A stretch of DNA of 64,000 nt, taken from the IMG/VR virus record IMGVR_UViG_3300009181_000044, positions 1-64,000 of that record, one strand, 5' to 3'. Each line of letters begins with the position of its first letter. The stretch's first letter is position 1. Positions 1 through 27,900 of the stretch are shown here, in pieces. Below the pieces are notes generated by a model. The model was not told the origin of the DNA, ran no database searches, and was given only the letters and a program-made list of their open reading frames with translations. The position numbers and the translations under genes are program-made. Source of the stretch: a virus.

Positions 1-95
1 ACCGCCACCGCCACCGCCCACTCAGCCACAGAATACAGCGGAAAAGATTGAGCGATTATTAACCGAACTAGAACTCTTAACTCAGCAATTACGAC

Positions 96-422
96 ATGAA
101 AACTCCAATGCAACTCCTACGGGAATTCGACCCAACACAACCGATTCCAGAACCCGTTCCACATAGCCAAAAAAATATACAGCGACTCCTAGACAAACTG
201 CAAGAGGAGTCAGCTGAAGTTATTCAAGCCATAAGCAAAGTCCGCAGATTTGGTGAACACAACCACCACCCAGATCGCAAAACCACTAATCACGAAGAAT
301 TCATTCAAGAAATAACAGATTTCCTGGCAATTGTTGCAGCCCTAGAACAACTAGAATATTGTAACTTAACTATACACCAACACTCCGTCTACCGGAAAAC
401 GCAAGCCTTAATCTCCTCATAA
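96..422 (+). CDS. MazG-like nucleotide pyrophosphohydrolase
   Basis: KLQEESAEVIQAISK...EEFIQEITDFLA matches the EExxE...ExxD helical MazG pattern. Confidence 0.7.
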   Translation: MKTPMQLLREFDPTQPIPEPVPHSQKNIQRLLDKLQEESAEVIQAISKVRRFGEHNHHPDRKTTNHEEFIQEITDFLAIVAALEQLEYCNLTIHQHSVYRKTQALISS

Positions 423-431
423 AAAATACGC

Positions 432-461
432 TTGTGCTTTATACAGTCGATATGATATAAT
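432..461 (+). promoter_or_regulatory. sigma70-type promoter
   Basis: TTGTGC...TGATATAAT (extended -10) with an A-rich upstream tract. Confidence 0.55.
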
Positions 462-481
462 TTAGTATAAATTGATAAAGT

Positions 482-625
482 TTAAGACTAGACACTTTGA
501 GTGGATTGCCTACAATCACGGAAATCTAGTGTGCTGGGAGGAGCTCGCGACTTACGGGGATCCAGTAACACACTAGAATTTGCGTAGATTTAGGGTCAAT
601 GCACAATCAAAGTAGACTAGTCTAA
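482..625 (+). ncRNA. long imperfect hairpin (5' leader or small RNA)
   Basis: Nested arms: AGACTAG/CTAGTCT, ACTTTGA/TCAAAGT, CTAGTGTG-CTGG/CCAG-CACACTAG. Confidence 0.5.
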
Positions 626-653
626 AGGTTTTGGGAAAACTACGTTTAAAAAA

Positions 654-1430
654 ATGCTACAATTAAGAAAACTAACTATAACTGAATTACCACTTAACTT
701 AATTGCTACAATGACGGAAACTGAATTGGAGGATTGGGCTGTAAAGAACCAACTCAATCGCATGGGATCGTGGCTCTTGCCCCAACTTGTGGCGGCTTTT
801 GGTTCGTGGCGACTCATCCTAGTTGACGGCAAACCAGATGTTAAACTGACCCTAAAGCACAACTGTGAGTCTAGTTTAGAAGCTCAGGCATACTGGCGGC
901 TAAGCCGAATTCCACGCACGTGCCTATTAACCAAGCAGGTAGCAATTCCAGAGTATGCTGTGTTAACTCCACTAATCCTAGCAGGATTTAAGCGTATGCA
1001 GGCAGTTGGCTATGCGTCATGGCAGGGTTTAGAAAATTTAAGCTATGTCATAGAACCCCGTCTCTTGGAGGCAGTTTGTGTTGATGTGCCTGACTTAGGG
1101 TCAGAGCGACTATTGGAGATTAGACAACAGGGGTTAACAACACGCAGTGGCAAAAGTGCAGGTCAACTAAAGTCAGCAGAAACTACTTGGAGCTTGAATG
1201 GAATATCGGACACTGAGTTGGGACATCTACCCAAATTAACACAATCCATATTAGCTCAAATCTGGCTGGCCCATCCGGTTCACAGAAGTGGGCTTATGAT
1301 TTTAGATCCGGGCAACTGGGATCACATGCCAGAACCACTAATTGCACCCACAATATTTAAACAACCCATTAAAGAATCTGAAGTAATAAACGCAAAAGAA
1401 ACAGCAAAAACACTACTACCGTGGATGTAA
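654..1430 (+). CDS. hypothetical phage protein (258 aa)
   Basis: Long ORF downstream of a promoter, abutting the next gene; no motif recognised. Confidence 0.75.
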   Translation: MLQLRKLTITELPLNLIATMTETELEDWAVKNQLNRMGSWLLPQLVAAFGSWRLILVDGKPDVKLTLKHNCESSLEAQAYWRLSRIPRTCLLTKQVAIPEYAVLTPLILAGFKRMQAVGYASWQGLENLSYVIEPRLLEAVCVDVPDLGSERLLEIRQQGLTTRSGKSAGQLKSAETTWSLNGISDTELGHLPKLTQSILAQIWLAHPVHRSGLMILDPGNWDHMPEPLIAPTIFKQPIKESEVINAKETAKTLLPWM

Positions 1431-1431
1431 G

Positions 1432-1749
1432 ATGAAATACAATAAAGAAATCACTGACCGTATTATAGCTGACTACAAGGCTAAGGTGCCAGTTCGAGAT
1501 ATAGCTAATGCAATTGACGTACCAGAACGCTCAATTATAGCAAAATTAAGCTCTTTAGGAGTTTACGAGAAAAAAACGTATGTTAATAAACGAGGTGAGC
1601 TGCCCGTAAAAAAATCCGAGCACATTGAACGCATAGCACAACTGCTTGAGGTCAATTCAGAGACCCTAGAATCGCTGGAAAAGGTAAATAAGGGAGTACT
1701 TAAGTTAATTGAACTTAAATTGACCAAATCTGACCCTAAACCAGAATAA
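1432..1749 (+). CDS. T5 A2-like DNA-binding protein, paralogue 1
   Basis: RSIIAKLSSLGVYEKK...LESLEKVNK aligns with the other three copies and with recalled T5 A2 (SVRSKL..AKAY..; LASLE). Confidence 0.65.
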   Translation: MKYNKEITDRIIADYKAKVPVRDIANAIDVPERSIIAKLSSLGVYEKKTYVNKRGELPVKKSEHIERIAQLLEVNSETLESLEKVNKGVLKLIELKLTKSDPKPE

Positions 1750-1767
1750 TTGCCCATAATTCGACAC

Positions 1768-1802
1768 AAGCCTACTTAATTTCGGTTAAGTAGGCTTTTT
1801 TG
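1768..1802 (+). terminator. intrinsic terminator
   Basis: AAGCCTACTTAA-TTTCGG-TTAAGTAGGCTT followed by a T run. Confidence 0.85.
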
Positions 1803-2009
1803 CGTCTGCTCTAATCAGGTCAAATCAGGCTATTTTGCGGCACCACTGCAATTGTTACGGTTTAGGGTCAGTAGAACTCAAAGGTTACACTTTAGGGTCA
1901 GAACAGGAACCTATGGGTAAAAATCAAGAATTTGCACTTGACAAGTTGAACACACACTGGTAAAATGGCGCAGGCACGTCGAAAATTTGCGATGTGGTTT
2001 ATTTTACGC

Positions 2010-2048
2010 AAAACAAAGCCCCCTCACCGCGACGTGTAGGGGGCTTTG
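2010..2048 (-). terminator. intrinsic terminator closing the RNA cluster
   Basis: Minus strand CAAAGCCCCCT...AGGGGGCTTTG followed by TTTT. Confidence 0.8.
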
Positions 2049-2066
2049 AACTCGCCAGTTTTTTAG

Positions 2067-2426
2067 TGGTTGTCTAAGTGCAGCTGCCAAGCCGCACACT
2101 GGTTTCCTCAGTGGTTCTCTAACAGGACTTCTGGAAGACGGTCTTCACGGCCTGACCCTAAACTGCACACTGCCTCACTGACGTTACTGTGAGCATACCG
2201 GTGGTTAGGGGAGTAATGCGCTACGCTTCCAACGCTTGCGCCCTTTTTAACGACTTAGGGTCGAGCCGGTTATATTGTTGCTCCCGCTCGGACTAAAGCA
2301 GGGACTAGCCTTGTAACGTGGACAATTACGACTGATTAGAGACCGCTGCAGTTTAGGGTCATTAACGCTACTGGGGGTTCCACCCAGATTACCTGACTCA
2401 TAGGTCAAGCTCTTAAGGTCTTAGAT
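2067..2426 (-). ncRNA. large structured RNA of unknown class, ending in CCA
   Basis: No ORF; 15-bp long-range helix 2347-2361/2153-2167; many hairpins with GNRA loops (GGAA, GCAA, GAAA) on the minus strand; 6-bp closing stem TCTAAG/CTTAGA then CAACCA. Confidence 0.6.
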
Positions 2427-2568
2427 GATAGCTGTATTTATAGAGTTCTTTCTCTTCTAGTTTTGTATTCACACTCATAGTGGAGTCGGGAGGAGTATAG
2501 ACTTTGCTCCGAGCCTAGGGTTACGTACTATTTACAAACTACCACAAGGGATTTATGTTTAGGTTCGG

Positions 2569-2666
2569 TTCCTGACCCTAAGCTGCGACTAGCGGTGTTG
2601 TAGTAACACGCACACTAGCTGCGATTGCTTGGGTTTCGCTAGACTTGCACTAGCTCATCAGAGGAA
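2569..2666 (-). ncRNA. hammerhead ribozyme (type I)
   Basis: TTCCT-CTGATGA-GCTAG(TGCAAGT)CTAGC-GAAA-CCCAAGC...GCTTAGGG-TC|AGGAA: full core, stems I-III paired, GUC cleavage triplet. Confidence 0.88.
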
Positions 2667-2668
2667 TA

Positions 2669-2738
2669 TGGTGGGCGGTGTGTAGCTTCTCACACCATCA
2701 AGTTGTTATCAGATTCGTAAATCTGTCGCATAACACCC
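2669..2738 (-). ncRNA. tRNA-sized CCA-ending non-tRNA RNA
   Basis: GGGTG/CGCCC-A-CCA closing stem; internal hairpins CAGATT-TACG-AATCTG and GGTGTG-N8-CACACC; no TTC T-loop. Confidence 0.6.
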
Positions 2739-2743
2739 AAAAC

Positions 2744-2818
2744 TGGTACTCGGCAGGAGAATCGAACTCCTCTTTCCGCCGTGAAAGGGCAGCGTCCTAA
2801 CCGATAGACGAGCCGAGC
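2744..2818 (-). tRNA. tRNA-Glu (TTC)
   Basis: GCTCGGC acceptor stem, anticodon arm CTGCC-CTTTCAC-GGCGG, T-loop GTTCGATTC, encoded CCA. Confidence 0.95.
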
Positions 2819-2918
2819 AGGATACTAAGGGCTGTGGCTCGGGTAATTTATTCCCCACAATTAAGACGCATAACGGATAAATCCCGTTTCCGCTGTCACC
2901 CTGAATTAATATATAATA

Positions 2919-2947
2919 ATTATAACGTAATCAAGCTCGGTAATCAA
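2919..2947 (-). promoter_or_regulatory. sigma70 promoter driving the RNA cluster
   Basis: TTGATT-N17-TATAAT on the minus strand. Confidence 0.75.
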
Positions 2948-3089
2948 GTAAAAATAAACAGTCGTTGTTATCAGAACTAACTTAGGTGAATTTAAAAAAA
3001 TTAATTAGGTTGACTAAGTGTTCATTAACAAACGGGCGGCCGGGTTTTCACGGTCATTCATTAAGCCCTTCCCGACTGTTTATAAATAA

Positions 3090-3118
3090 ATTATACAGCA
3101 AATAGGGTCGTCAATCAA
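3090..3118 (-). promoter_or_regulatory. second sigma70 promoter upstream of the RNA cluster
   Basis: TTGATT-N17-TATAAT on the minus strand. Confidence 0.7.
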
Positions 3119-3144
3119 GTGAAGATTTTCTGACCCTAAATTGC

Positions 3145-3453
3145 TCAAGGCAGGCGAGCTGCCAAGAGTTCGAGTGCTTCGTGGGTTGCCTTTTCCAGGC
3201 TTTCCAGCACTTCTTCACTAGCGCCCACTTTGTAGGCAATCAGGCTTACCAGCTGAGCCTTGGTCACGCGAGTGCCAGTAGCCTTGCTTTTGGCCTTGTA
3301 CACGCCTTCGCGGCTGAGCTTGGCCACGATGCTGCGGGTAGATTTGCCCAGTTGTAGGGCAAGGATTTCTACAGCCAAGCCTTGGCTGTAACCCTGCAAG
3401 AGTTCAGCCGTTTGTTCGGCGGTGTAGTTGGTTTTGGTAGCTTCAGTCATCAT
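3145..3453 (-). CDS. T5 A2-like protein, paralogue 2
   Basis: NYTAEQT...RSIVAKLSREGVY...LESLEKAT; AAAGGA RBS. Confidence 0.7.
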   Translation of the reverse strand: MMTEATKTNYTAEQTAELLQGYSQGLAVEILALQLGKSTRSIVAKLSREGVYKAKSKATGTRVTKAQLVSLIAYKVGASEEVLESLEKATHEALELLAARLP

Positions 3454-3499
3454 ATGTCCTTTTGGTTGGTTTCTGCGCTGTTAAAAGATTATTATACAA

Positions 3500-3634
3500 C
3501 TATTGCGGCACATCGTCAAATTCAAAAAACTTGTCGTGTACGTAGATAGTACCGAGATTTTTGGATAGCTCTGTCTCCACAAATTCTGCAAACCACTGCT
3601 CCTGGTTTAAGCTGAAAAATTCGTTGTCCGACAT
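3500..3634 (-). CDS. small acidic protein (44 aa, not in ORF track)
   Basis: AAGGA RBS; MSDNEFFSLNQEQWFAEFVETELSKNLGTIYVHDKFFEFDDVPQ; upstream TATAAT. Confidence 0.5.
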   Translation of the reverse strand: MSDNEFFSLNQEQWFAEFVETELSKNLGTIYVHDKFFEFDDVPQ

Positions 3635-3947
3635 TTGCCATTCCTTGTTATCATAAAATAAATTATACATAAATCAAAACTTTTTGGCAAATGTAAATTT
3701 TTTCGCTTGATTGCGCACTTGAATCGAAAATACACTTGACAACACTAGGTTTAGCACTGTATAATTTTGGCGCAGGTGACACGGTGATTTTTACACTTGC
3801 TTTCCCACTGGCGCAGCCGGTATACATGCTCGTTTTTACACTTGCTTTTCCACTGGCGCAGGGCATGCATGCCCTGTCGTACTAAAGTACCACAAAATCG
3901 CCGGCAAGTACTGAAAAAGTAGTACATCCGCAAAAATAGCCGCAAAC

Positions 3948-4009
3948 TGGCACAGAATCTGCTAATAGCAAGAATCGTGCCAGCCCCAGCGGCGCAAGAA
4001 GTATGCCAA
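3948..4009. promoter_or_regulatory. three sigma-54 (-24/-12) consensus sites
   Basis: TGGCACAGAATCTGCT (+, 3948), TGGCACGATTCTTGCT (-, 3967-3982), TGGCATACTTCTTGC (-, 3994-4008); all GG-N10-GC. Confidence 0.65.
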
Positions 4010-4265
4010 GTGGTAAGAAAACAACATCAGGGAAAACACCTACAAAATATTTCTTGACACGCGCCCCAAAATTGTGTTATAATTTTGGCGCCAATAACCC
4101 TACTGACTGTAGGGTTATTAAGCTAAAAAATAACCCTGCGCTGGGCAGGGTTACTAAAAATATGCTAGGGGGATTTTCACCCCCATGCCCGAATAAAAAA
4201 TCGGATATTAAAAATTATATGATAGCATATTTTTAAAAAGCCCCTGCTTTTGGCAGGGGCTGTAA

Positions 4266-4592
4266 TCAAATAGGTTTACTATTTGCCAAAGCGTCAAAAA
4301 TCGCTTTCAGTGCCGATTTATTGGCTTTTGTAAGACTTTCGATGTCATTTTCCGGCAAGCGGAGAATCGCACCGATAGCGTCTGCATGAGCGTCTTTTTT
4401 GACTACAGCTTCGCCCGTTTTGGAAACGTAAGTTTTAGCCACATAGACCTTTTCGCGTGACAATTTCGCCACAACGGAACGCACAGTTTTGCCCAAATTT
4501 TGGGCAATGGTTTCCACCGATACCCCTGAGGTATAATCGGCAATCATCGCAGAGGTTTGCTCTGGAGTGTAATTTACAACTTTCGCAGTCAT
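4266..4592 (-). CDS. T5 A2-like protein, paralogue 3
   Basis: KTVRSVVAKLSREKVYVAKTY; very similar to 9308-9631. Confidence 0.75.
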   Translation of the reverse strand: MTAKVVNYTPEQTSAMIADYTSGVSVETIAQNLGKTVRSVVAKLSREKVYVAKTYVSKTGEAVVKKDAHADAIGAILRLPENDIESLTKANKSALKAIFDALANSKPI

Positions 4593-4773
4593 TTTGCTTT
4601 CCTTTCATTTAAAAATAAATTATAACCCATAAACCAGAAAAAATCAAGTGTGTGCAAAAATACAACATAGGGGAAAACACCTATTGACAACCCCCAAAAT
4701 TATATGTTATAATTTTGGCGCAGCAAAGTAGTACTTTGGTTTCCAATTTTACTTGGAAACCAAAGTGTTACAA

Positions 4774-5448
4774 TCAGGCGAATTGTTCTAACAATTGTTC
4801 GCAGTGTAGCTGTACATCCAAAGTATCAACGCAATCTTTAAAATGCAGTAAAAATAACTCGGCATGATCGCCAGTAGTTATATGTGAGTGCCAAACCCCA
4901 GTATTAAAACTAAAGAAGTCACCATCACGAACATTTACAGATTCGGTAACCATTTCCTCACCCGAACCATTATCAAACAGATCAAAAATATGCTCGTCTG
5001 ACAATGCCAAATAGGGATTATTATCTGTATAATATTCAACTCCATGAAAATTCACAACTGCATCATTGTTACCTTTGATAAGCATACAAAGATTCATTGT
5101 GCTAGTGGTGTCATATATGTGACGATGTACACCCCAGTTTGCAACATAGTTTTTGCCTATGTAATAGTGCAAACCCATAGCATCCAACAATTCGATAAGC
5201 TCAGGGAAATTCTTCTCAATTTGAGACCATTCGACCTTTAGGGGTTTACCCTCTAAACCTTGGTCAAGCCTTACAATGGCATTTTCTTCGCCACCTTCGG
5301 CACAAATGCCCCAATAATCACAGTTAATGGCATTTTTATTTTTACCAAAAATATAACCTTCAACCAAGGTTAGCAAGCGTGACAACTCTTTTAAATTGTC
5401 ATCGGTTCTTTTAAATTTGACAAAATTATTGCCTACAGTTTTGATCAT
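4774..5448 (-). CDS. cupin / 2OG-Fe(II) oxygenase-like protein
   Basis: VHRH...NLCM...FNTGVWHS metal-binding jelly-roll pattern. Confidence 0.5.
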   Translation of the reverse strand: MIKTVGNNFVKFKRTDDNLKELSRLLTLVEGYIFGKNKNAINCDYWGICAEGGEENAIVRLDQGLEGKPLKVEWSQIEKNFPELIELLDAMGLHYYIGKNYVANWGVHRHIYDTTSTMNLCMLIKGNNDAVVNFHGVEYYTDNNPYLALSDEHIFDLFDNGSGEEMVTESVNVRDGDFFSFNTGVWHSHITTGDHAELFLLHFKDCVDTLDVQLHCEQLLEQFA

Positions 5449-5627
5449 TTTCGTTTCCTTCGTTTAAAATGAAATTATACCACAAAATCCAAAAAACACA
5501 CAAGTGTGCAAAAATACAACATCAGGGTTTATCCCCATTGACACCGGCTAAAATTATATGTTATAATTTTGGCGCAGCCCTGAAAACAAAAGTATTCAGT
5601 TTATTTCTAAACCGAAACCTTTTGTTT

Positions 5628-5840
5628 TCAGAAAAAGTTAAACAATCCGATTACGTTTGCAACAAAAAATGTACCATTAAGTACACCTAATGCTTTGTCC
5701 TTCTTTTGATAAGCAACCCACAACCAAGCAAGTGAGCCAAAAGTAAACAAAACATATCCAATTTGAAACATTTTGGTTGCAACGGCAAACGAACCAAAAA
5801 TACTAGTCAGAGTGCCGAACCAAGAAACAAAAGTAATCAT
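5628..5840 (-). CDS. small 3-TM membrane protein
   Basis: 70 aa with three hydrophobic segments. Confidence 0.65.
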   Translation of the reverse strand: MITFVSWFGTLTSIFGSFAVATKMFQIGYVLFTFGSLAWLWVAYQKKDKALGVLNGTFFVANVIGLFNFF

Positions 5841-5843
5841 TTA

Positions 5844-6197
5844 TTAAATCTCCATTGAGTGATATGCTTTAGCGGGTAAACCATATTTTACCATGATTTC
5901 AGACCATGTGCGCCCATGCCAGCGATTATTTTTTGGCAAGCCATGAAAAATATAATCAATTTGATGTGCAATTTCGTGTGGTAAAATAACATTAAGCATC
6001 TCAATTGAATGCTTTTGCATAAACTTCATGCCGAAATTAATACAATTGTTTTCAACCTCACAGTTAGCGGCAGTTACTGTAAACCTTTTGTTTGCAATAA
6101 TGACGGGTCGATCAATGCGAATCAATCGGGGATAGATTTCGCAAAATTCAAGCCATACCGAATCAGCTTTTTTGTTGATTGTTTTCATTGTGTCCAT
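5844..6197 (-). CDS. SprT-like zinc metalloprotease
   Basis: HEIAH...HGRTW motif; start uncertain (6197 or 6188). Confidence 0.8.
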   Translation of the reverse strand: MDTMKTINKKADSVWLEFCEIYPRLIRIDRPVIIANKRFTVTAANCEVENNCINFGMKFMQKHSIEMLNVILPHEIAHQIDYIFHGLPKNNRWHGRTWSEIMVKYGLPAKAYHSMEI

Positions 6198-6351
6198 GCC
6201 TGAATTATACATCAAAACCCCGTTGTTTTTTAATCACACACAAAAAATAAGTTATTAAATAATGCTTGACAAGCCCCAATTATATAATATATAATTGGCG
6301 CAGCCAGAAACGAAAGTATTACATTTCGTTTCTTTTTGAAAACCTGAGTTT

Positions 6352-6609
6352 TCAATTTTTCTTGGCTGGGCAAATTTTGTAGTACAAAATAATTGCAATA
6401 AAAATTAAGTTTGCGGCATAATTGAAAACCAAAGGTAACATCATGGTGGGAAAAACGAAAACAAAAGTAAACACCTCGCCAAAGCCCCACATAAGCAAAA
6501 ACCCCCATGTAAGCCCATCAGAGTTCTTATTTTGATAAGATTCGATAGCTTGTGGCAAGCCACAAAATGCCAACAAAATCGAACCAGCCCAACCAAAAAT
6601 TTCTAACAT
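6352..6609 (-). CDS. PQ-loop (SemiSWEET-like) membrane protein
   Basis: GWAGSILLAFCGLPQAIESY...GLTW, 3 TM segments. Confidence 0.8.
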   Translation of the reverse strand: MLEIFGWAGSILLAFCGLPQAIESYQNKNSDGLTWGFLLMWGFGEVFTFVFVFPTMMLPLVFNYAANLIFIAIILYYKICPAKKN

Positions 6610-6789
6610 AATTTCACCTATATAATTTTATCTACAGTCACGCACCGATTATAGGGCATCTCTGAATTGTCGTCAATATCATATCGTTTTTGTGTGTAAA
6701 AAAACAACAATAACAATATAACCCAATAAATGCGATATTTTGAAATAATAATCATTTTATTAATAATCGGGATTTCTCCCGATTATATT

Positions 6790-7488
6790 TTATTTTGCAA
6801 CAAAGTGGTTTTTAACCTGAAAATCTTGCCACGCATAAGGTTTGATATTATCAAGCCAATTGCGTTTTTTGATTATGTGCGAGAGAATGGGCAGTTCAAA
6901 ATCTCGGGCATCTTCTAATGCGGTATGCGGTTCAATAATAATATTATTATTAATAAAGCCACACACAATCTCAGCATTAGTTTTGAATGTCATATTGCCA
7001 TTTTTTGTGGCATTATTAAATTGGTGATTATCAAGCGCAAATTGTTTAAATGCTTTTTTATTGCAGATATTACCAACGCTCGCTTGCCAAAGGCAAAATC
7101 GAGAATTAAACCCTGATAAATCAATGCCAGTATTTGCACATTTTGACAAATCAAAAGCCAGATTATATGCAGTCAATGAGGGATTATATTTGCCAATGGC
7201 TTGATTAATCCATTTATTAATGGCATTAACTGAGGCGGACATTCTCGCCCCTGTTTCTAGCATGGCATTATATCCGGCTTTGCGTTTTTGCAAACCAGCA
7301 TAACCCCAAATATCATTTGCATTTTTATCATGGAATAATTCCATTGTGCTATAATGCCCGATTACCAAAACCGCACATTGATTGTAAATTTTACCATTAC
7401 GATCAACAATCACAATGGCAAAATCTGCCACAGTGTCATTAATGGTTGTCTCAGTGTCGAGAATTGCAAAAAATTGTTTTTTAGCCAT
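6790..7488 (-). CDS. DEDDh 3'-5' exonuclease
   Basis: DTET, AYNLAFD, HTALEDA motifs. Confidence 0.85.
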   Translation of the reverse strand: MAKKQFFAILDTETTINDTVADFAIVIVDRNGKIYNQCAVLVIGHYSTMELFHDKNANDIWGYAGLQKRKAGYNAMLETGARMSASVNAINKWINQAIGKYNPSLTAYNLAFDLSKCANTGIDLSGFNSRFCLWQASVGNICNKKAFKQFALDNHQFNNATKNGNMTFKTNAEIVCGFINNNIIIEPHTALEDARDFELPILSHIIKKRNWLDNIKPYAWQDFQVKNHFVAK

Positions 7489-7686
7489 TGTGTGCCATCG
7501 TGTTGTTGAAGTCCCAATTATACATCAAAAAACCGCCCCACGCACAAAAAATTTAAAAATATTTTTTTGTTGTATTTACGCAAATTAGGGGTTTACCCTA
7601 TTGACACGCGCCCAATTATACTAGTATAATTGGCGCAGCTAGAAACGAAAGTATTACATTTCGTTTCTTTTTGAAAACCTGAGTTT

Positions 7687-7881
7687 TCAAATTATGTGAA
7701 ATTTATCTTTGGGGGTTTCATCCCTTGCAAGTGAACAAATTATCACAGCTTGAAACCATCCGCAAAAATATAAACCAGCAATCCAAAGTAAACCGCCGTC
7801 TTCGTAAGCCCTTAGTCCACACAAAAGGGTTGTAACAGTAGTCAGAATAGTTAAAAAGATTTTGAAAACAGAAGTGTTCAT
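7687..7881 (-). CDS. small 2-TM membrane protein
   Basis: MNTSVFKIF... after AAGGA; two hydrophobic segments. Confidence 0.55.
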   Translation of the reverse strand: MNTSVFKIFLTILTTVTTLLCGLRAYEDGGLLWIAGLYFCGWFQAVIICSLARDETPKDKFHII

Positions 7882-7882
7882 T

Positions 7883-8359
7883 TTAATGTCCTTGTTTGCT
7901 TGGTACATATACGCCACGAATATCAAAACGATCACAAACCGCTTTTAGATAAGTAATATTATCTTCATAAAATGTAAATTCGGCATCTTTGAAATTTAGC
8001 AAATTAAAGAATTTAGCCAAACCTGCAATTTTAAGGGTTGCACCTGATACATTGTCGCCATCTTTGCGAGATATGATATAATCTGGTTCGCCTAGAATCT
8101 CGCTAATAAATTGATTATCAGCATCCCGCAAAACACGGGCAGTAGCAATAATAACAAAACAATTCTCATTTCTGAGGTCTGTTTTGTATTGTTCTGCCAA
8201 TGGTAAAAGTGAATCTTCCAATGCACGATATTCATTTTCACGCCAATAATCAAGGTCGATACGCTCGCCATTGTCGCCAATGATAGTGCGATACCGATGC
8301 AATGAGTCAACAATTGTGCCATCCATGTCATATATTGAAACCTTTGTGATTTTAGCCAT
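7883..8359 (-). CDS. HAD-superfamily phosphatase / nucleotidase
   Basis: DMDGT motif I, ATAR motif II, FYEDN motif IV. Confidence 0.8.
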   Translation of the reverse strand: MAKITKVSIYDMDGTIVDSLHRYRTIIGDNGERIDLDYWRENEYRALEDSLLPLAEQYKTDLRNENCFVIIATARVLRDADNQFISEILGEPDYIISRKDGDNVSGATLKIAGLAKFFNLLNFKDAEFTFYEDNITYLKAVCDRFDIRGVYVPSKQGH

Positions 8360-8784
8360 TTTTGCTTTTCCTTGTTACGATAGAGCAATTATACATCAAA
8401 AATCGCCCATACAACAAAAAATATTGAAAATAGCAAAAATACAACATAGGGGAAAACACCTATTGACAGACCCCAATTATATAACATATAATTGGCGCGC
8501 CCATGTAGTACCTTTGTTTTCAATTTTTCCTGAAAACAAAAGCATTACATTAATCAACCTGTATGTCTACAATTTTTTCTTGTGTGCTATCAGTCACAAT
8601 GTACATTGTGACCACGCCAAGTCCAACCATATACACACAATTTTGAATTGTGTGTATTATAGCATGAGGGTATTTTTTGCCAACATAATCAGCAACAACC
8701 AAGGGGATATTATTCATTTTGATAACCAATACAAAAGCGAAACCTTAACGGCAACAAACACAGAAAACCACAAAAGAAATTCAA

Positions 8785-8988
8785 TCATAACCAACCTTCT
8801 TCAGCTTTTTGATAAGAGTCCATGCTGTCCACAATCTTGTGCAAAGCCTCGAATTGTTCTTGCAGAAATTCTCTAGATTCCCATTCTTGTGGGGTGAAAT
8901 GTCTGGGACGCATACCATGTACATCCTTATAAAAATCCCAAATGGTATCCTGCAATTGTTGCAGGGTTGTGTGTTCGTTAAACATCAA
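8785..8988 (-). CDS. hypothetical phage protein (YKDVHGxRPR motif)
   Basis: Start overlaps the upstream stop; GAGGA RBS. Confidence 0.6.
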   Translation of the reverse strand: MMFNEHTTLQQLQDTIWDFYKDVHGMRPRHFTPQEWESREFLQEQFEALHKIVDSMDSYQKAEEGWL

Positions 8989-9116
8989 AGATCATCCTCA
9001 GAGAAAAATTGTTCAAGTGCCCCATTGTATTCGGAAAGGTTTGCAAACGCAAGACCATTACGATCACAGAATCGGTGAAAGCGGTTTAATTGTGCTTTAG
9101 TGTATTTTGTTTTCAT
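8985..9116 (-). CDS. hypothetical protein (43 aa)
   Basis: ATG 7 nt after TATAAT. Confidence 0.5.
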   Translation of the reverse strand: MKTKYTKAQLNRFHRFCDRNGLAFANLSEYNGALEQFFSEDDL

Positions 9117-9307
9117 GTTGTCTATTATACAAGGTTTTCTAAGATTTGCAAGCGTTTTGCGAAAATACCACATAGGGACAAACCCCTATTGACACACCCC
9201 AATTTTATGTGATAAAATTGGCGCAAACAAAGTAGTACCTTTGTTTGCAAAAGGGCAAGTAGTACCTTTGTTTGCAAAAGGGCAGGGTCAATAACCCTGC
9301 CCTTTGG

Positions 9308-9631
9308 TCAGGCTTTTTCAGCCTTGATAAAATCGGCAATTTTTGCCAATGCAGTTTTGTTAGCCTTAGTCAGCGAATCAGCATCAGCCTCAGAGAGTGC
9401 CAGTGCCTTAGCGATGAAATCAGCGAATTCATCTTTTTTAACAACGGCTTCACCCGTCTTGGTGGTGTATGTCTTGGCAACATAAACCTTCTCGCGAGAG
9501 AGTTTAGCAACAACAGATCGAACAGTTTTGCCAAGGGATTCAGCAATGGATTCGACCGATGTGCCAGCCTGATAGTCAGCGACCATTTTAGCGGTTTGTT
9601 CGGCAGTGTAGTTTACAGTTTTTGCAGTCAT
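9308..9631 (-). CDS. T5 A2-like protein, paralogue 4
   Basis: MTAKTVNYTAEQT...RSVVAKLSREKVY; GGAG RBS. Confidence 0.75.
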   Translation of the reverse strand: MTAKTVNYTAEQTAKMVADYQAGTSVESIAESLGKTVRSVVAKLSREKVYVAKTYTTKTGEAVVKKDEFADFIAKALALSEADADSLTKANKTALAKIADFIKAEKA

Positions 9632-9688
9632 AGAAAAATCTCCATTTAGTTGAGAGGTTGAAAAGAATTTATTATATCACACATTTAG

Positions 9689-9796
9689 TTAATAAAGCCA
9701 TACCCACAAAGGGGCAAAGGCTATTGCCACAAATAGGATAGCTTGCAGAAATTCAATAGCAAGTTGTTTCATGTTGGTCACCTTGTTTGTCATCAT
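9689..9796 (-). CDS. small membrane peptide (not in ORF track)
   Basis: MMTNKVTNMKQLAIEFLQAILFVAIAFAPLWVWLY downstream of a TATAAT promoter. Confidence 0.45.
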   Translation of the reverse strand: MMTNKVTNMKQLAIEFLQAILFVAIAFAPLWVWLY

Positions 9797-10019
9797 GTAT
9801 TTATTATAACATCAAAACAAAAAAAGATCAAGTGTGTGTTTAAATACAACATTAGGGAATGTACCTATTGACAGGGGGGTTAAGAGACATACTGTTACAC
9901 ACACGCTACTGGACCCACCCACACGGCCTATCAGGGGAAATTTTTGGAAACCCATCTGGGTGCGTAAACCACTGCACACAACAAAACACAACCGCAAAAA
10001 CCACCACAAAAAAATCAAC

Positions 10020-10048
10020 TTGCCACAGCCTACCCAAACTGATATAAT
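10020..10048 (+). promoter_or_regulatory. late-region sigma70 promoter
   Basis: TTGCCA-N17-TATAAT before TerS. Confidence 0.75.
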
Positions 10049-10068
10049 AGAACCAAAAAGGACAACCC

Positions 10069-10542
10069 ATGACACAAATGCTACCTGCTGAAGTCATTAA
10101 GATAGCCCCAGAAGCACTAGAAGTGGCCAATTGCTATCTACAACTTAACGACCCTAGAAAGGTCGCACACGAACTAGACCTGGATGTAGAAACTGTAACT
10201 GAACTACTAAAGCGACGTGAAGTTAAAGCTTACATAGACTCGGTATTTTTTGACTCGGGCTATAACAACCGCTTTCTTATGCGTCGAGCCATGGATGCAC
10301 TAATCAAACAAAAGTTTCAGGAATTAGAAGAAGCTGGAGCAGGCTCGCAAAAAGACATTTCAGAACTCTTAGCGCTTTCGCACAAGATGAGCATGGATCT
10401 CATGGACAAAGAAATTCAGCTGGAAAAAATCCGGGCAGGTACTGCACCGCAAAAACAAGTTAATGTGCAAATTAACGAAGGTTTAGATGGAAGCAAGTAT
10501 TCAAAGCTGGTACAGCAGTTAATCTCAGGAGAAGGTGTTTAA
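10069..10542 (+). CDS. terS: terminase small subunit (T5-like)
   Basis: EVKAYIDSVFFDSGYNNR...KFQELEEAGAGS.KDI resembles T5 TerS; upstream of TerL. Confidence 0.85.
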   Translation: MTQMLPAEVIKIAPEALEVANCYLQLNDPRKVAHELDLDVETVTELLKRREVKAYIDSVFFDSGYNNRFLMRRAMDALIKQKFQELEEAGAGSQKDISELLALSHKMSMDLMDKEIQLEKIRAGTAPQKQVNVQINEGLDGSKYSKLVQQLISGEGV

Positions 10543-20844: not shown

Positions 20845-22241
20845 TGGCCAGTAAAGTAACTCTCAAAGATCTTATAAGCACACTAGATCCACAAATTAGG
20901 TCTAGCTTATTGTATGATACACGAACATTAGATTTAGACAAAAGACCGCACGTTTTAGATATTTCTAAAACGAGTTTACAGGTTAACAATCGTGGCAATA
21001 CTATTCCATCTTTTAACGAGTTATATAATACATTTATCGAAGTAGTAGCTAAAAAAGTACCGGCTTCTAGAACATTTAGTTCAATTGATCAGATACCAGG
21101 TAATTATTTTAAATCATCAAAACCTTATTTAATATATGTAAATAGTGGATCACTGCAGTTACTTTTGTCAATGTCTTTTAAGTCTATTCAAGAGTTTGTT
21201 AGTGATGTTGTCAGAGACCCTAAATTGGTTAAAACAGCATTTGGAGTACGAGAAAATAAAAAGCCAGAGTGGGAAGGTCAGCCAGTCGAAGACTGGAAAC
21301 TTGCCGGCACTACTAGCCTTTTAGACATAGGACATATTCCTAGTGCTGAATCTGCCGAATACTTTGTATCACCACTAGCACAAAAAATTGGCACAATTTT
21401 AGATAACTTTGAAGCAAGAGGTATTTCAGCTAATAGTGAGGCATATAAACTTGCGGTTGATAGTCTTAATAAAATAACAAGTATTCAAGCAAAAGTTGAT
21501 TACGAATTTAGAAACAGTACACCAGAAGTATTTCAAAAAGTAGAAAACCTATTTGGAACAATGTTTGTTGCAGTAACCATACAAACTTCCGATATTAACC
21601 AAAAAGAGTTTGGTGACAAAGAATTAAAGATATTTCAAGCATTTAAAGAAAAGCTAGCCATATACTTAGCAAAACCCAGTTTAGTTAAAAGTTACTTAGG
21701 TTTAAGTGGTTCAAATACCATATTACAAGATATAGAACAAGCTTTTGTTGATATATTAAAAACTGGTAAAAGTAAGTTAAAAATACACGCTAAACAAAAA
21801 AGTACTAAAGGCAAACAAACAAAAATTGGAGTAAGTAATAAACTACCAATAACTAGTACTATTAAATCAAAGATTGGTAAACCTGCAGCACCTGTTACTA
21901 AACAGCTTAATACCGTAAACTTACCTGTTCTTTTACTTTTTATAAATCAGCACCTACAAGATGTTATAAGCGCTAATATGGGTGACGGTTCCCGTAGCGA
22001 TATTTTAAACTACAGAACAGGTAGATTTGCTGCCTCTGCACAAGTTACGGCACTATCACAAAGTCGTGAAGGCCTGATAACTGCTTTTTATAGTTACATG
22101 AAGAATCCTTACGCAACTTTTAGTGACGGCGGCAAACAAGCAAGACCACGATCTAGAGATCCTAAACTGCTAATAGGTACTTCAATTAAAGAGATCGCTG
22201 CTCAGCAGGTAACAAATAGATTAAGGGCAGTATTAGTATGA
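20844..22241 (+). CDS. tail completion (neck) protein, T5 p143-like C-terminus
   Basis: LNYRTGRFA...YMKNPYATF...RDPKLLI; synteny. Confidence 0.65.
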   Translation: MASKVTLKDLISTLDPQIRSSLLYDTRTLDLDKRPHVLDISKTSLQVNNRGNTIPSFNELYNTFIEVVAKKVPASRTFSSIDQIPGNYFKSSKPYLIYVNSGSLQLLLSMSFKSIQEFVSDVVRDPKLVKTAFGVRENKKPEWEGQPVEDWKLAGTTSLLDIGHIPSAESAEYFVSPLAQKIGTILDNFEARGISANSEAYKLAVDSLNKITSIQAKVDYEFRNSTPEVFQKVENLFGTMFVAVTIQTSDINQKEFGDKELKIFQAFKEKLAIYLAKPSLVKSYLGLSGSNTILQDIEQAFVDILKTGKSKLKIHAKQKSTKGKQTKIGVSNKLPITSTIKSKIGKPAAPVTKQLNTVNLPVLLLFINQHLQDVISANMGDGSRSDILNYRTGRFAASAQVTALSQSREGLITAFYSYMKNPYATFSDGGKQARPRSRDPKLLIGTSIKEIAAQQVTNRLRAVLV

Positions 22242-24967: not shown

Positions 24968-27900
24968 ATGAGCAATGAGACGATTAAAATTGGTATAGAC
25001 GTTAGTTCCAACGGAACCCTACCTAAAAGTGAAAAAGAAGCCGCCGCACTAAATAAGCAATTAGAAGCTTTGGCTAGAAATGCTGATCGCGCAAATAAAG
25101 CTCAGCAAGGTGGTACTGGCGGCAGCCGTAAAGCTGCGGCTACTATGGACAATACGGGCTATAGAAATTTACAAGGCACTGCTCAAACAAGCGGTGCTGA
25201 AGGACGAGACTTTGCAAAACAGTCGCAAGGTCTTGGTGGATTGGTACGTGTGTACGCTACCTTTGCTGCAAACATATTTGCTGTAAGTGCAGCATTTACT
25301 GCCTTGAAAGAAGCTGCAGCAACAGAAAACATGGTTAAAGGACTTGACCAACTAGGTGCAGCAAGCGGCCGTAATTTGGGTACGCTTTCTAAACAAATTG
25401 CCGCAAGTGTGGACGGAGCAGTATCACTTAGAGAAGCAATGACTTCTGTGGCTCAAGCTAGTTCTGCAGGTTTAAATACTAAACAAATAAAAGATTTAGC
25501 GTTAGTAGCCAATAAAGCATCTCAAGCTTTAGGCTTAAATATGTCTGATGCTATGAGCCGTCTAAGTCGCGGTATTAGCAAGATTGAGCCGGAACTATTA
25601 GACGAATTAGGTATTTTTGTTAAAGTTGATGAAGCAACGCAAAAGTATGCCTTAGCTGTTGGTAAAACTACAGCCTCATTATCAGACTTTGAAAAACGCC
25701 AAGCTTTTGCTAATGCAGTACTTGACCAAGCAAAAGAAAAATTTAGTGCTATTGACGTAGCCGCTAATCCTTATGATAAACTACTAGCCAGTGTTAAGAA
25801 TCTAGCAACAAGTGGATTAGAGCTAGTCAATACATTTTTAGCACCTGCTGTTAAATTTTTAGCTGAGTCTCCTACAGCTTTAGCAGTTGTTTTTGCTAGC
25901 ATTGCTGGAATACTATTAAAACAAGCACTGCCTGCATTAGGCGAATTTCGTCGTGGCATAGAGTCCACTAGAAAAGCATCGGCAGATGCGGCTGCTGCTT
26001 TTGCAAAAGCCTTCCCAGATACTTTCCAAGAAAAATTACTTCGTCAGTTTCAAATACCAGATCTAGAAAAATCTGTAGCTAGAGCAGAAGCAAATTTAAA
26101 TAGACTAAACAAAAACCCAGCACTTGATAAAACACTTGCTAATAATTTATCTAGTGCTATTGCTGCAGACCCTAAAGCGCTAGCCAGTGCTAAAGAAATA
26201 TTAGAAAATCGTAATAAAATTATTGAAACCGGTAAAAAAGGCAGTGCGCAAGCAACAGCTGCTCAAATTGAGAATGCTAGAGCAGATAAACTACAGCTAG
26301 AAGGAGCTATTGCAGTTTATAAAGCTAAACTTGATCTAATAAAAGCCAACAGCTTATTAACGGCAGGACAAGATAAGATGGAAACAAAGGCAGGAGCCCC
26401 TATTAGTAAGTGGGACCCTGAAACTTTAGCTTTAGCAAGATATATAAAATTACGAAAAGAAGTTACTAAAAGTGAATTAATTTCAGGTGCAGCCGAAACT
26501 GCTTCTATTTTAGGAGTTAGAGCTGCTTGGTCAGAACTTCATGCAAATGTACAAAAAGAAGGCTTGGGAACTTGGGATAAATATACTACGCTTGCCAAAG
26601 GCACACTAGCTGCCGTAACTACAAGAATTATGGGAATTGTGGGTGCGCTAGGCACTCTAGGACAAATGGCAGGTGCTGCTATAGCAGTATTTTCACTAAT
26701 TGACTCTTTTGCATCAAGCGCTACAAAAGAAGTAGAAGCTTTTAATGCTGCAACCGATGCTACTAAAGCAGCATTAAAAGGCGTAAACGATACGTACGAT
26801 CTATATCTTATAAAGAAAAAAGAAAGTTTTAGTCTTGAAAGTATTTCTGCATTTACAAACGCACTAGGCGGACTAACAGATGCGTTTGAAAGCCAGATAT
26901 TAGCGGTTAGAAAGTTTGATGCAGCTGCAAATGACTGGGATAGATTTAAAGACAGTTTTGCTAGTTTATTTGGTGGCGGTAATGCCAATAAGTTAAAACA
27001 AGGTGCAAAAGATACTGTTCAGGGCGTGTTAAAGTCACTAGAATTTAGCTCTTATAAGAAACAAGATGAAAGTCTGCTAGCTAGTGTTTTAGGGCTAGAT
27101 GACCCTAAACTTTTGTATGATACAAAAGCACTAGATAAAGCACTAGAAGCAATACCGGATGCTGAATTACTAAGAAAACTGGATCAAGTAAAAGCAACGG
27201 TACAAGGTATTAGAGAGCAAGAAGAGTATGCAACAAATGCTGCAAAAGCTTTTGCAGAAAGTTTAGGCACAATTGGTAAAATTACTGATCAGATGATTCA
27301 AGCTAATGCTTTTACAGATCTTCAAGGTAAACTAGGAGTAGAATTAGTAAATGCTTCAGATAGGTTTGCTCAGTCTTTACAAGACCCACTAAAAGCTTTA
27401 GAAGCGATAGCCAAACTTAGTAAGGATCCTAAAGCTTTAGCTGCTTTAAATATTACTGATTTGACAGAATTAGCACAAGCTGCAAAATTTGAAAGAGAAA
27501 TTAGCGTTGCTACTAAAGAAAGAGTTGAAGCTGAAAAAGAACTAGAACAAGCAAAAGCAGGCAAAGGTAAGCTTAGTACTGCTCCTGATGCAGGAACTTT
27601 TGGACAGGGTGGAGTAGGTTTTCTAGAAACTACAAAGCAAAGAGACATAGAAAACGCAAATGCTGCACTACAAAAAGCAATTAGTCAGGTAGAGAAAGCT
27701 CAAAAAGAAGGAGCTAACTTTGCTATTAGTCAAGTTGGTTTAATAGATAAGATTGCTAGTGCTGGACTTGAGAAAATTGAATTAGGGTTGAAGAAAACAA
27801 AAGAACTTGCAGCTATATCTCTTGCACGAGCACAACTAAGTTTTGCAGCATCTGCAGGATTTGACACGTCTAACGATGAATACAAGTTACGTATACAAGA

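Follow-up and report, generated by a model that had tools for sequence, protein, structure and literature searches.

A conserved asymmetric box, arrayed at one locus and dispersed with set polarity, in a clade of T5-like phage genomes

Why would a 10-bp word be packed, in both orientations, across protein-coding genes, intergenic DNA and noncoding RNA (ncRNA) genes within about 3 kb of a virus genome? The locus in question, positions 589 to 3140, belongs to IMG/VR record IMGVR_UViG_3300009181_000044, one 98,857-bp virus contig with a G+C content of 39%, the first 64 kb of which form the stretch analysed here (the window); positions beyond the window refer to the whole genome. An earlier note on this DNA had described the word, TGACCCTAAA, as a cluster of binding sites for a host or phage protein, possibly paralogues of the T5 protein A2, that would act as an injection stop, packaging or origin signal. 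We propose that an asymmetric recognition box of ~13 bp, yTGACCCTAAACyG, has this word as its core and would be read as DNA by a sequence-specific binding protein, probably the A2-family paralogues encoded on its flanks; from the sequence comparisons described below we put the probability of this reading at about 0.45.

The word is not evenly spread. The window holds nine exact copies of TGACCCTAAA, against a mean of 0.09 and a maximum of 1 in shuffled sequences; eight of the nine lie within 589-3140, every one where the earlier note had counted it, and the ninth is at 27100. The whole genome has 13 exact copies, and a genome-wide k-mer count, which the earlier note had proposed as a check, places nine of them in the 3.2 kb from 98794 to 3140 that span the contig junction, the additional copy at 98794 lying across that junction from the window start. 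TGACCCTAAA is the top 10-mer of the genome and GACCCTAAA the top 9-mer, above every A/T-rich word. The previous figure of about six near copies is roughly right, some of them probably being chance matches: one-mismatch copies are found within the span at 1094 (minus strand) and 2573 (plus strand), a two-mismatch copy at 2254 (minus strand), and a few are weaker. In all, the array comprises approximately eleven boxes, mostly in alternating orientation.

The first exact box (589-598, minus strand) lies in the 5' leader of open reading frame (ORF) 2, 56 bp upstream of its start, and relatives carry one in the same orientation at approximately -65 to -90. Two boxes are inside ORF2 (654-1430, plus strand), an exact one (847-856, plus strand) that is read as L-T-L-K and recurs approximately +195 to +214 into ORF2 of relatives, and the one-mismatch copy TGACCCTAAG (1094-1103, minus strand), antisense to L-G-S, which is exact in L005, L006 and many other relatives. 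An exact box (1731-1740, plus strand) lies at the 3' end of ORF3 (S-D-P-K-P-E-stop), whose orthologues mostly end DPK(L/P). Two exact minus-strand boxes make a direct pair 30 bp apart, the first (1861-1870) intergenic and the second (1891-1900) 38 bp upstream of the -35 element of a plus-strand promoter at 1938-1966. Further on, the exact boxes at 2153-2162 (plus strand) and 2352-2361 (minus strand) belong to a 15-bp inverted repeat (2153-2167 and 2347-2361), between whose arms lies the degenerate two-mismatch box CGACCCTAAG (2254-2263, minus strand). The one-mismatch, box-like copy at 2573-2582 (plus strand) reads CUUAGGGUC|A on the minus strand, where it provides stem III of a hammerhead ribozyme with its 3' strand and also furnishes the cleavage site. 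The last exact box (3131-3140, plus strand) lies 4 nt past the stop codon of the A2-like gene at 3145-3453, so that this gene, like ORF3, has a box at its 3' end; the same box is 12 bp upstream of the -35 element of a minus-strand promoter at 3118-3090. The copies do cross ORFs in varied frames (L-T-L-K at 847, D-P-K at 1731, antisense L-G-S at 1094), intergenic DNA and ncRNAs, as had been described.

Is the array a peculiarity of one genome? Relatives number in the hundreds in IMG/VR, from which we retrieved 31 related loci with ORF2. The cluster is present in all 30 closer relatives, and also in 13 whole or partial related records; all loci but the most distant have GACCCTAAA in 5-12 copies, located around ORF2 and ORF3 and the noncoding DNA that follows them. 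Measured from the ORF2 start, sites recur at approximately -460, -75, +200 and +440; others follow at the ORF3 end and onward, and the orientation mostly alternates. The 231 pooled instances yield the asymmetric consensus given above, with approximately 13 specified positions, and the reversed word, used as a control, gives 0-1 matches per strand per record. In the most distant lineage (L034/G008) TGACCCTA is kept and the 3' half of the box has changed to RGTTG, the variant box being TGACCCTARGTTG. The noncoding DNA at approximately 1.8-2.9 kb fails to align between relatives and boxes nevertheless persist there; inside ORF2 and ORF3 they are fixed, in differing frames and on both strands. It is the exact word that is frozen, not any complementary pair, and many sites are on the 'wrong' coding strand, which together fit the prediction for a sequence-specific DNA reader. 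The earlier idea of binding sites therefore holds to the extent that the word behaves as a sequence-specific recognition site, invariant in more than 30 related phages; the packaging signal that was also suggested does not explain the dispersed copies. The ncRNA modules between boxes are swapped among relatives and the boxes at the edges stay, as if marking cassette borders. In L034 (G008), the stretches 2400-2700 and 9365-9680 hold a 43-bp tandem repeat of approximately six units, each with the palindrome CCCTAGGG, and a separate run of 10 copies of CCAAAGATCG in steps of 18 or 36 nt.

Approximately ten further copies are found across the genome outside the cluster. The earlier note had seen only scattered copies elsewhere, which is true, yet those copies are far above chance. 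In this genome nearly every dispersed GACCCTAAA encodes Asp-Pro-Lys (DPK), in frame and on the sense strand, and the motif codons are used in 11 of the 14 DPK tripeptides, compared with 1.8 expected by codon usage and approximately 3.5 when codon-pair bias is included. The DPK tripeptide is itself approximately five-fold over-represented, ranking first of 4,086 tripeptides by observed/expected ratio here and third of 4,494 in the relative G006. When three genomes are pooled there are 36 DPK tripeptides (9 expected), 21 of them spelled GACCCTAAA, and among 42 LGS or FRV tripeptides in the same genomes that could hold the antisense word by synonymous change, only one does so. Many dispersed sites read DPK(L/P), which extends them to the box consensus AAAC(T/C)G. 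Plus-strand examples in the window are the two copies of AGACCCTAAA at 21215-21224 (in-frame D-P-K-L) and 26167-26176 (in-frame D-P-K, in the tape-measure gene), and the exact copy at 27100-27109 (in-frame D-P-K-L, also in the tape-measure gene). Some of the sites are orthologous in the three genomes; others are confined to a single lineage, with relatives having other residues (DPK versus ETP, HPD or SER). Sites are thus gained and lost through amino acid changes, and with the codon and tripeptide excess this indicates that the copies are kept by selection and that the proteins pay some price for them. The dispersed copies are a new finding; they stand above noise and are under selection. A late-promoter role was rejected, the dispersed copies lying mid-gene.

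The dispersed copies also have a direction. Nine records that are whole or large contain 66 of them, and 65 are oriented away from the cluster, on both sides of it, with one switch of polarity on the far side, at approximately 61 kb here and at 52.6/53.2 kb in G006. Polarity can be separated from gene sense only in two short blocks that are transcribed toward the cluster, and there approximately eight informative sites follow the cluster polarity and one follows gene sense. The separating sites include copies that run antisense to a thymidylate-synthase-like gene (L018/L021) and to another gene on the plus strand (L007/L008). Among intergenic sites, several are likewise oriented away from the cluster, for example a G010 site between minus-strand genes. 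This pattern favours, but does not conclusively establish, a polarity set at the DNA level by position rather than a rule acting at the level of mRNA.

Where does the array lie in relation to the genome plan of T5? The large terminase shares ~50% identity with its counterparts in Vibrio T5-like phages (Demerecviridae). After it, from 10 to 61 kb on the plus strand, come the late genes (portal, protease-capsid, major tail, tape-measure), and from 61 to 92 kb, on the minus strand, a T5-like replication block with ribonucleotide reductase, SbcC-like protein, helicases, DNA polymerase, DnaB-like helicase, D5-like regulator and split NAD ligase. Gene order and orientation match those of T5 in mirror image throughout the genome. 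In T5, pb5, terS, terL, portal, capsid and tail genes lie at the outer end of the repeat and are transcribed away from the right terminal repeat; here terS at 10,069, terL, portal, capsid and tail genes are transcribed away from a block of small genes. The small terminase subunit (10069-10542, plus strand; phrog_3802, E = 4.6e-36) is the first late gene past that block. The T5 pre-early block runs dmp, A1, A2 and then, at the repeat's inner end, the injection-stop signal (iss; 9140-10149 of 10,219), which is annotated in NC_005859, with those coordinates, as Repeat Region 3 (Davison 2020 preprint, doi 10.1101/866236). The pre-early-like block here extends from 9.9 to 3.1 kb and has a dmp-like gene, three A2-family paralogues and strong sigma-70-type promoters; the dmp-like phosphatase gene (7883-8359, minus strand) is one marker of it, matched by T5 dmp in tblastn with E = 2.5e-9. 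Beyond the iss, T5 early genes, including phosphoesterases and endolysin, are transcribed toward it, and beyond the cluster ORF3, ORF2, a MazG-like gene, thyX, metallophosphoesterase and endolysin genes are all transcribed toward the cluster. The mirror-image order and orientation therefore place the cluster where T5 has its iss. Within the window at 3736-9900 there are repeated near-consensus promoters ending in TATAATTTTGGCGCAG (for example 3735-3780, 4056-4100, 4696 and 5550), with palindromes; they point against the minus-strand genes of the pre-early-like block.

The earlier note presumed the cluster to be at the inner edge of the DNA transferred in the first step. The last 18 nt of the contig equal the first 18 nt (genome 98840-98857, window 1-18) and lie within an (ACCGCC)n run located in an ORF, which marks the record as a circle that was opened arbitrarily in assembly; coordinate 1 thus does not mark an end of the DNA molecule. 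The number of repeats in this hexamer run may be mis-assembled. Contig ends of near-complete relatives sit in repeats or strain-variable DNA: that of G006 is in a region of promoter cassettes, G008 has a 254-bp overlap, and G007 an imperfect 1-kb overlap in the tRNA/hammerhead region. With these ends, the 18-nt overlap here and no contig of the clade longer than ~102 kb, the boundary of a terminal repeat is not readable from the assemblies. In G007, a 100-kb relative, the overlapping ends (L037 1-1000 and L038 5163-6000) are identical for 127 nt and then 90% identical for 697 nt, which suggests that two strain variants of the hypervariable tRNA-Glu/hammerhead stretch were assembled into one contig. 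The flagged DNA itself is shared by no cultured phage: in a blastn search of 1-6000 against 50,697 phage records the tRNA was the sole match. Searches for extra relatives with the thyX and phrog_11543 proteins returned mostly unrelated phages lacking the motif; they gave no sister motif and left the polarity test unchanged. In the literature, no paper was found that gives this word in a phage context, nor any on this clade.

Which protein might read the box? The likeliest candidates are the phage's own A2-family helix-turn-helix proteins; two of their genes converge on the noncoding core and two more are in the adjacent pre-early-like block. ORF3 (1432-1749, plus strand; phrog_1725/phrog_323, with a GcrA-like helix-turn-helix) and the paralogue at 3145-3453 (minus strand) are the convergent pair; the other two are at 4266-4592 and 9302-9631 (both minus strand), the latter 72% identical to the former. 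T5 A2 matches phrog_1725 with E = 4.3e-52, as do the genes at 3145-3453 and 4266-4592 with E of approximately 1e-5 and ORF3 with E = 4e-3, and in alignment ORF3 and the three paralogues share an RS(V/I)IAKLS...LESLEK pattern with the T5 A2 family. The earlier label 'A2 paralogues' was thus well chosen, these proteins being genuine members, by profile matches, of phrog_1725, the PHROG family of T5 A2. In the replication block (genome 79136-80161, minus strand), an A2 homologue is directly upstream of a phrog_3611 'helicase' gene that weakly matches the N-terminus of T5 A1, an A2-then-A1-like order far from the pre-early-like block. ORF2, which carries two of the boxes, encodes a conserved protein of 258 amino acids with 22 residues invariant across 18 sequences and a high-confidence AlphaFold model (pLDDT 87, pTM 0.81); the model has no recognisable fold, with a best VIA-align Z of only 3.8, and the protein has no match in Pfam, PHROG, PDB sequences, the phage collection, the Atlas or Foldseek.

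What would such a protein do at the boxes? Our proposal is that the approximately eleven boxes would assemble into a single large nucleoprotein array where the pre-early-like genes meet the early ones, and that this array, from which the approximately ten dispersed boxes point away, would mark one pole of a DNA signal that depends on orientation and spans the genome. DNA entry and packaging run in one direction, so that neither predicts a polarity flip in mid-genome. The flip does fit processes that come toward the array along both arms, for example replication forks, convergent transcription or nucleases that enter at each of the two ends, and for this reason the array is read as a pole. Our committed guess is that some DNA transaction, such as replication forks or end-processing, would reach the array from both arms and that the array may be its polar barrier or loading centre; a pause of DNA entry could be an added role of the same complex. 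If proteins do read the boxes, the chance that an injection pause is instead their main role is roughly one in three. What the sequences show is the boxes themselves, with their conservation, their selection and their polarity; from this pattern and the genes around it we infer the protein binding, the identity of the protein and any barrier or injection-stop activity.

The noncoding core also encodes structured RNAs, and some boxes are part of them. On the minus strand at 2566-2667, downstream of a tRNA-Glu(UUC) gene (2744-2818, minus strand), the sequence reads ...UUCCU CUGAUGA G-stem II-C GAAA C-stem III-GGGUC|AGGAA, the arrangement of a type I hammerhead ribozyme; 24 of the 31 related loci have it. 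When 17 sequences are aligned, the core does not vary, 88.9% of cells pair and 9 of 17 pairs show two-sided change, and the covariation score was reached by none of 500 shuffles; compensatory changes occur in stems I and II and in outer stem III. Stem III consists of a degenerate box paired with its complement, in which the GGGU side is constant and the partner tolerates C-to-U wobble. The earlier claim that one copy forms the hammerhead cleavage site is borne out by core, stems and covariation, and the claim that two copies form a large RNA helix by the minus-strand minimum-energy fold (z = -2.6), in which 2153-2167 pairs with 2347-2361 and so closes a fold of 219 nt. No hammerhead family of Rfam was matched in 1-4500 even with E up to 10, probably due to an insertion of 45-50 nt in stem III. 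One box per genome is used as a hammerhead part, although in two relatives (L025 and L031/L032) another such ribozyme, cleaving at GUA, lies at a different place. The tRNA-Glu gene is kept in L005 and cleanly absent from L004. Cleavage of other boxes in trans by the hammerhead was considered and rejected, other sites matching no more than 2-3 nt of stem I.

Could the boxes be RNA elements throughout? On that account the word and its complement would be pairing modules, making the closing helices of ncRNAs, hammerhead stem III, alternative helices in the ORF2-ORF3 mRNA or mRNA targets of ncRNAs that carry the complement. The degenerate box and anti-box of stem III, with their compensatory outer pairs, and the 2153/2352 closing helix are what it would lead one to expect; near-strict alternation makes neighbouring copies inverted repeats, and the dispersed copies are mostly on the sense strand. 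However, the word is frozen and does not covary, even in stem III, where the GGGU side stays constant while its partner wobbles, and pairing rarely reaches past the consensus. Sites are antisense or anti-oriented in the blocks transcribed toward the array, the 1861 box lies 64 nt beyond a terminator with both 1861 and 1891 upstream of the next promoter, and no Rfam family is found here. We regard an RNA-level function of the boxes as a whole as improbable. A pure injection-stop of the T5 type, with the array as a cis site, held by a host or phage protein, that halts first-step DNA transfer, is unlikely to be the full account but deserves more weight. Synteny puts the array at the position equivalent to the iss; it is rich in repeats and sits beside pre-early-like genes including dmp-like and A2-like ones, and the T5 iss is a complex array of repeats in both orientations too. 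The placement that the earlier note proposed is in this respect supported, but the role fails to explain the dispersed polar copies: one-way DNA entry does not predict approximately ten selected copies elsewhere, nor their mid-genome flip. The locus lacks a set of DnaA boxes, DNA similarity to T5 and an A1 homologue, half of the array is coding, unlike the untranslated T5 region, and the repeat boundary is not readable in a collapsed circular contig. The T5 hallmark sought was paired DnaA/DnaA* boxes (TTWTNCACA) in the order IRD'-spacer-IRC'; no DnaA box with one mismatch or fewer is present in 0.4-4.4 kb, and exact TTATCCACA is absent from the genome. There is no sequence similarity to the T5-group repeat elements (DRD, DRE and palindromes), the words of the T5 iss are absent here, and GACCCTAAA is absent from the parts of T5 that were read. 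Nick sites of the T5 type were rejected as an identity for the boxes, since the T5 consensus Pu|GCGC is on one strand only and the boxes are on both strands, sometimes approximately 10 bp apart.

A signal linked to replication, in which the array would be a terminus or fork trap like those of Ter/Tus and RTP, or an origin, and the dispersed boxes would line both arms, is another alternative. The box is asymmetric and information-rich, its polarity seems to depend on where a copy lies with respect to the array, two opposed polarity groups have closely spaced opposed sites at the pole, and candidate binder genes adjoin, as tus adjoins TerB and rtp adjoins TerI/II. The far switch at approximately 61 kb is at about mid-genome in a T5-oriented map, T5 origins having been mapped near the centre of T5 DNA (earlier work, as cited), and a stretch of 76% A+T occurs at 2901-3000. 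Weighing on the other side, Pfam and PHROGs scans of the flanking ORFs found no Tus or RTP homologue among them, GC skew tracks gene orientation and adds nothing more, the arms are unequal (approximately 59 and 40 kb), and there are neither DnaA boxes nor iteron-like direct repeats. Taken by itself this explanation seems to us distinctly unlikely. Least probable is a Chi-type motif read by the host, in which the reverse complement would be recognised by an enzyme of the RecBCD/AddAB class and would guard a linear genome from both ends, with the cluster near the entering end. The orientation is right for an enzyme entering from ends near the array, the frame-specific coding excess resembles that of Chi in bacterial genomes, and how T5-like DNA evades RecBCD is an open question. 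Yet the box has approximately 13 specified positions, where known Chi sites have 5-8, and the array sites are long fixed in position, unlike a statistical enrichment of Chi. In the sister lineage the 3' half of the box changes while TGACCCTA stays. The 11-mer is not enriched in 201 Burkholderiales genomes (including one unpublished, G044) and four other genomes, which is weak evidence. When 185,579 species genomes were searched for pairs of copies no more than 30 nt apart, at least 120 scattered matches came up in unrelated taxa; these look like local tandem repeats and indicate no host; the metagenome-assembled genome G131, with five matches, has no ORF2 homologue.

Several observations weigh against recognition of the boxes by the A2-family proteins as a polar DNA signal. 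Over most of the genome the polarity of the dispersed copies equals gene orientation, so that the two are confounded, and the separating sites (approximately eight against one) are few and partly non-independent by shared ancestry. At least two pairs of boxes double as RNA helices, and some copies may be kept for RNA reasons. By BLASTP neither ORF3 nor its paralogues match T5 A2 significantly, the family link being weak by sequence; the best T5 A2 homologue in the genome, at 79,799-80,161 (minus strand; phrog_1725, E = 1.4e-24), is outside the cluster; and the putative recognition segment of ORF3 shows no visible change in the lineage with the variant box. It is from synteny that the injection-stop position of the cluster is deduced, and T5 gives no precedent for genome-wide copies, because its iss repeats, in the parts of T5 read, are local to the region and not dispersed.

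What would follow if the A2-family proteins do read the box? To our knowledge, how DNA entry stops and restarts in T5-type phages, and what A2 targets, have been open for decades, the iss/A2 puzzle being 50 years old. The T5 region is a tangle of different repeats, and this clade is a much cleaner system: its word is a single invariant one at fixed positions, four candidate readers of the A2 family lie nearby, and metagenomes supply hundreds of natural variants. The iss/A2 puzzle of T5 would then be tied to a defined DNA word and a protein, and a 100-kb virus genome could bear a polar organising signal of the kind found in bacterial chromosomes. We know of no described phage motif that combines a dense array with strand- or arm-specific dispersed copies kept by recoding Asp-Pro-Lys.

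With which known systems can the array be compared? The hammerhead belongs with the type I hammerheads (Rfam clan Hammerhead_1/3/II), having a complete core, three covarying stems and a GUC|A cleavage site supplied by the copy at 2573. Set against an iteron origin, the array shows one direct pair 30 bp apart (1861/1891) and the A+T-rich stretch at 2901-3000 and is otherwise alternating; no initiator was recognised, and ORF2 has no known fold. Like the T5 iss, the array lies between a pre-early block and early genes transcribed toward it, has A2-family genes nearby and consists of dense short repeats in both orientations over 1-3 kb, the function being unexplained in both. Unlike the T5 iss, it uses a different word with no DNA similarity and no pairs of DnaA boxes, and approximately half of it is in coding DNA and ncRNA genes where the T5 region is untranslated; the T5 repeats are confined to their region, whereas the word of this clade also occurs genome-wide with set polarity. 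Those dispersed copies are reminiscent of Chi, KOPS and uptake-signal oligomers, which share with the box the rank of most over-represented genome oligomer, one preferred frame at a cost in amino acids and an orientation tied to the arm, but the word here is longer, its dispersed copies number approximately ten, a fixed dense array serves as the pole, and the carrier is a phage of virulent type. It is tempting, although we consider it somewhat doubtful, to see in this clade a chromosome-style, orientation-dependent 'architecture' motif, with the 13-bp box, A2-family readers and the array, at the position of the T5 injection stop, as a polar barrier or organising pole resembling Ter or dif; the selection that maintains the boxes on both genome arms would be so strong as to alter amino acid usage. 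The Ter/Tus barrier of E. coli and the RTP barrier of B. subtilis likewise combine asymmetric, information-rich sites that fall into two opposed groups with closely spaced opposed ones at the pole and with a binder gene beside the sites, the last of these being putative here; they differ in that no homologue of their proteins is seen in the flanking ORFs, and in that the present sites are in a phage genome and form a much denser array, with 11 of them in 3 kb.

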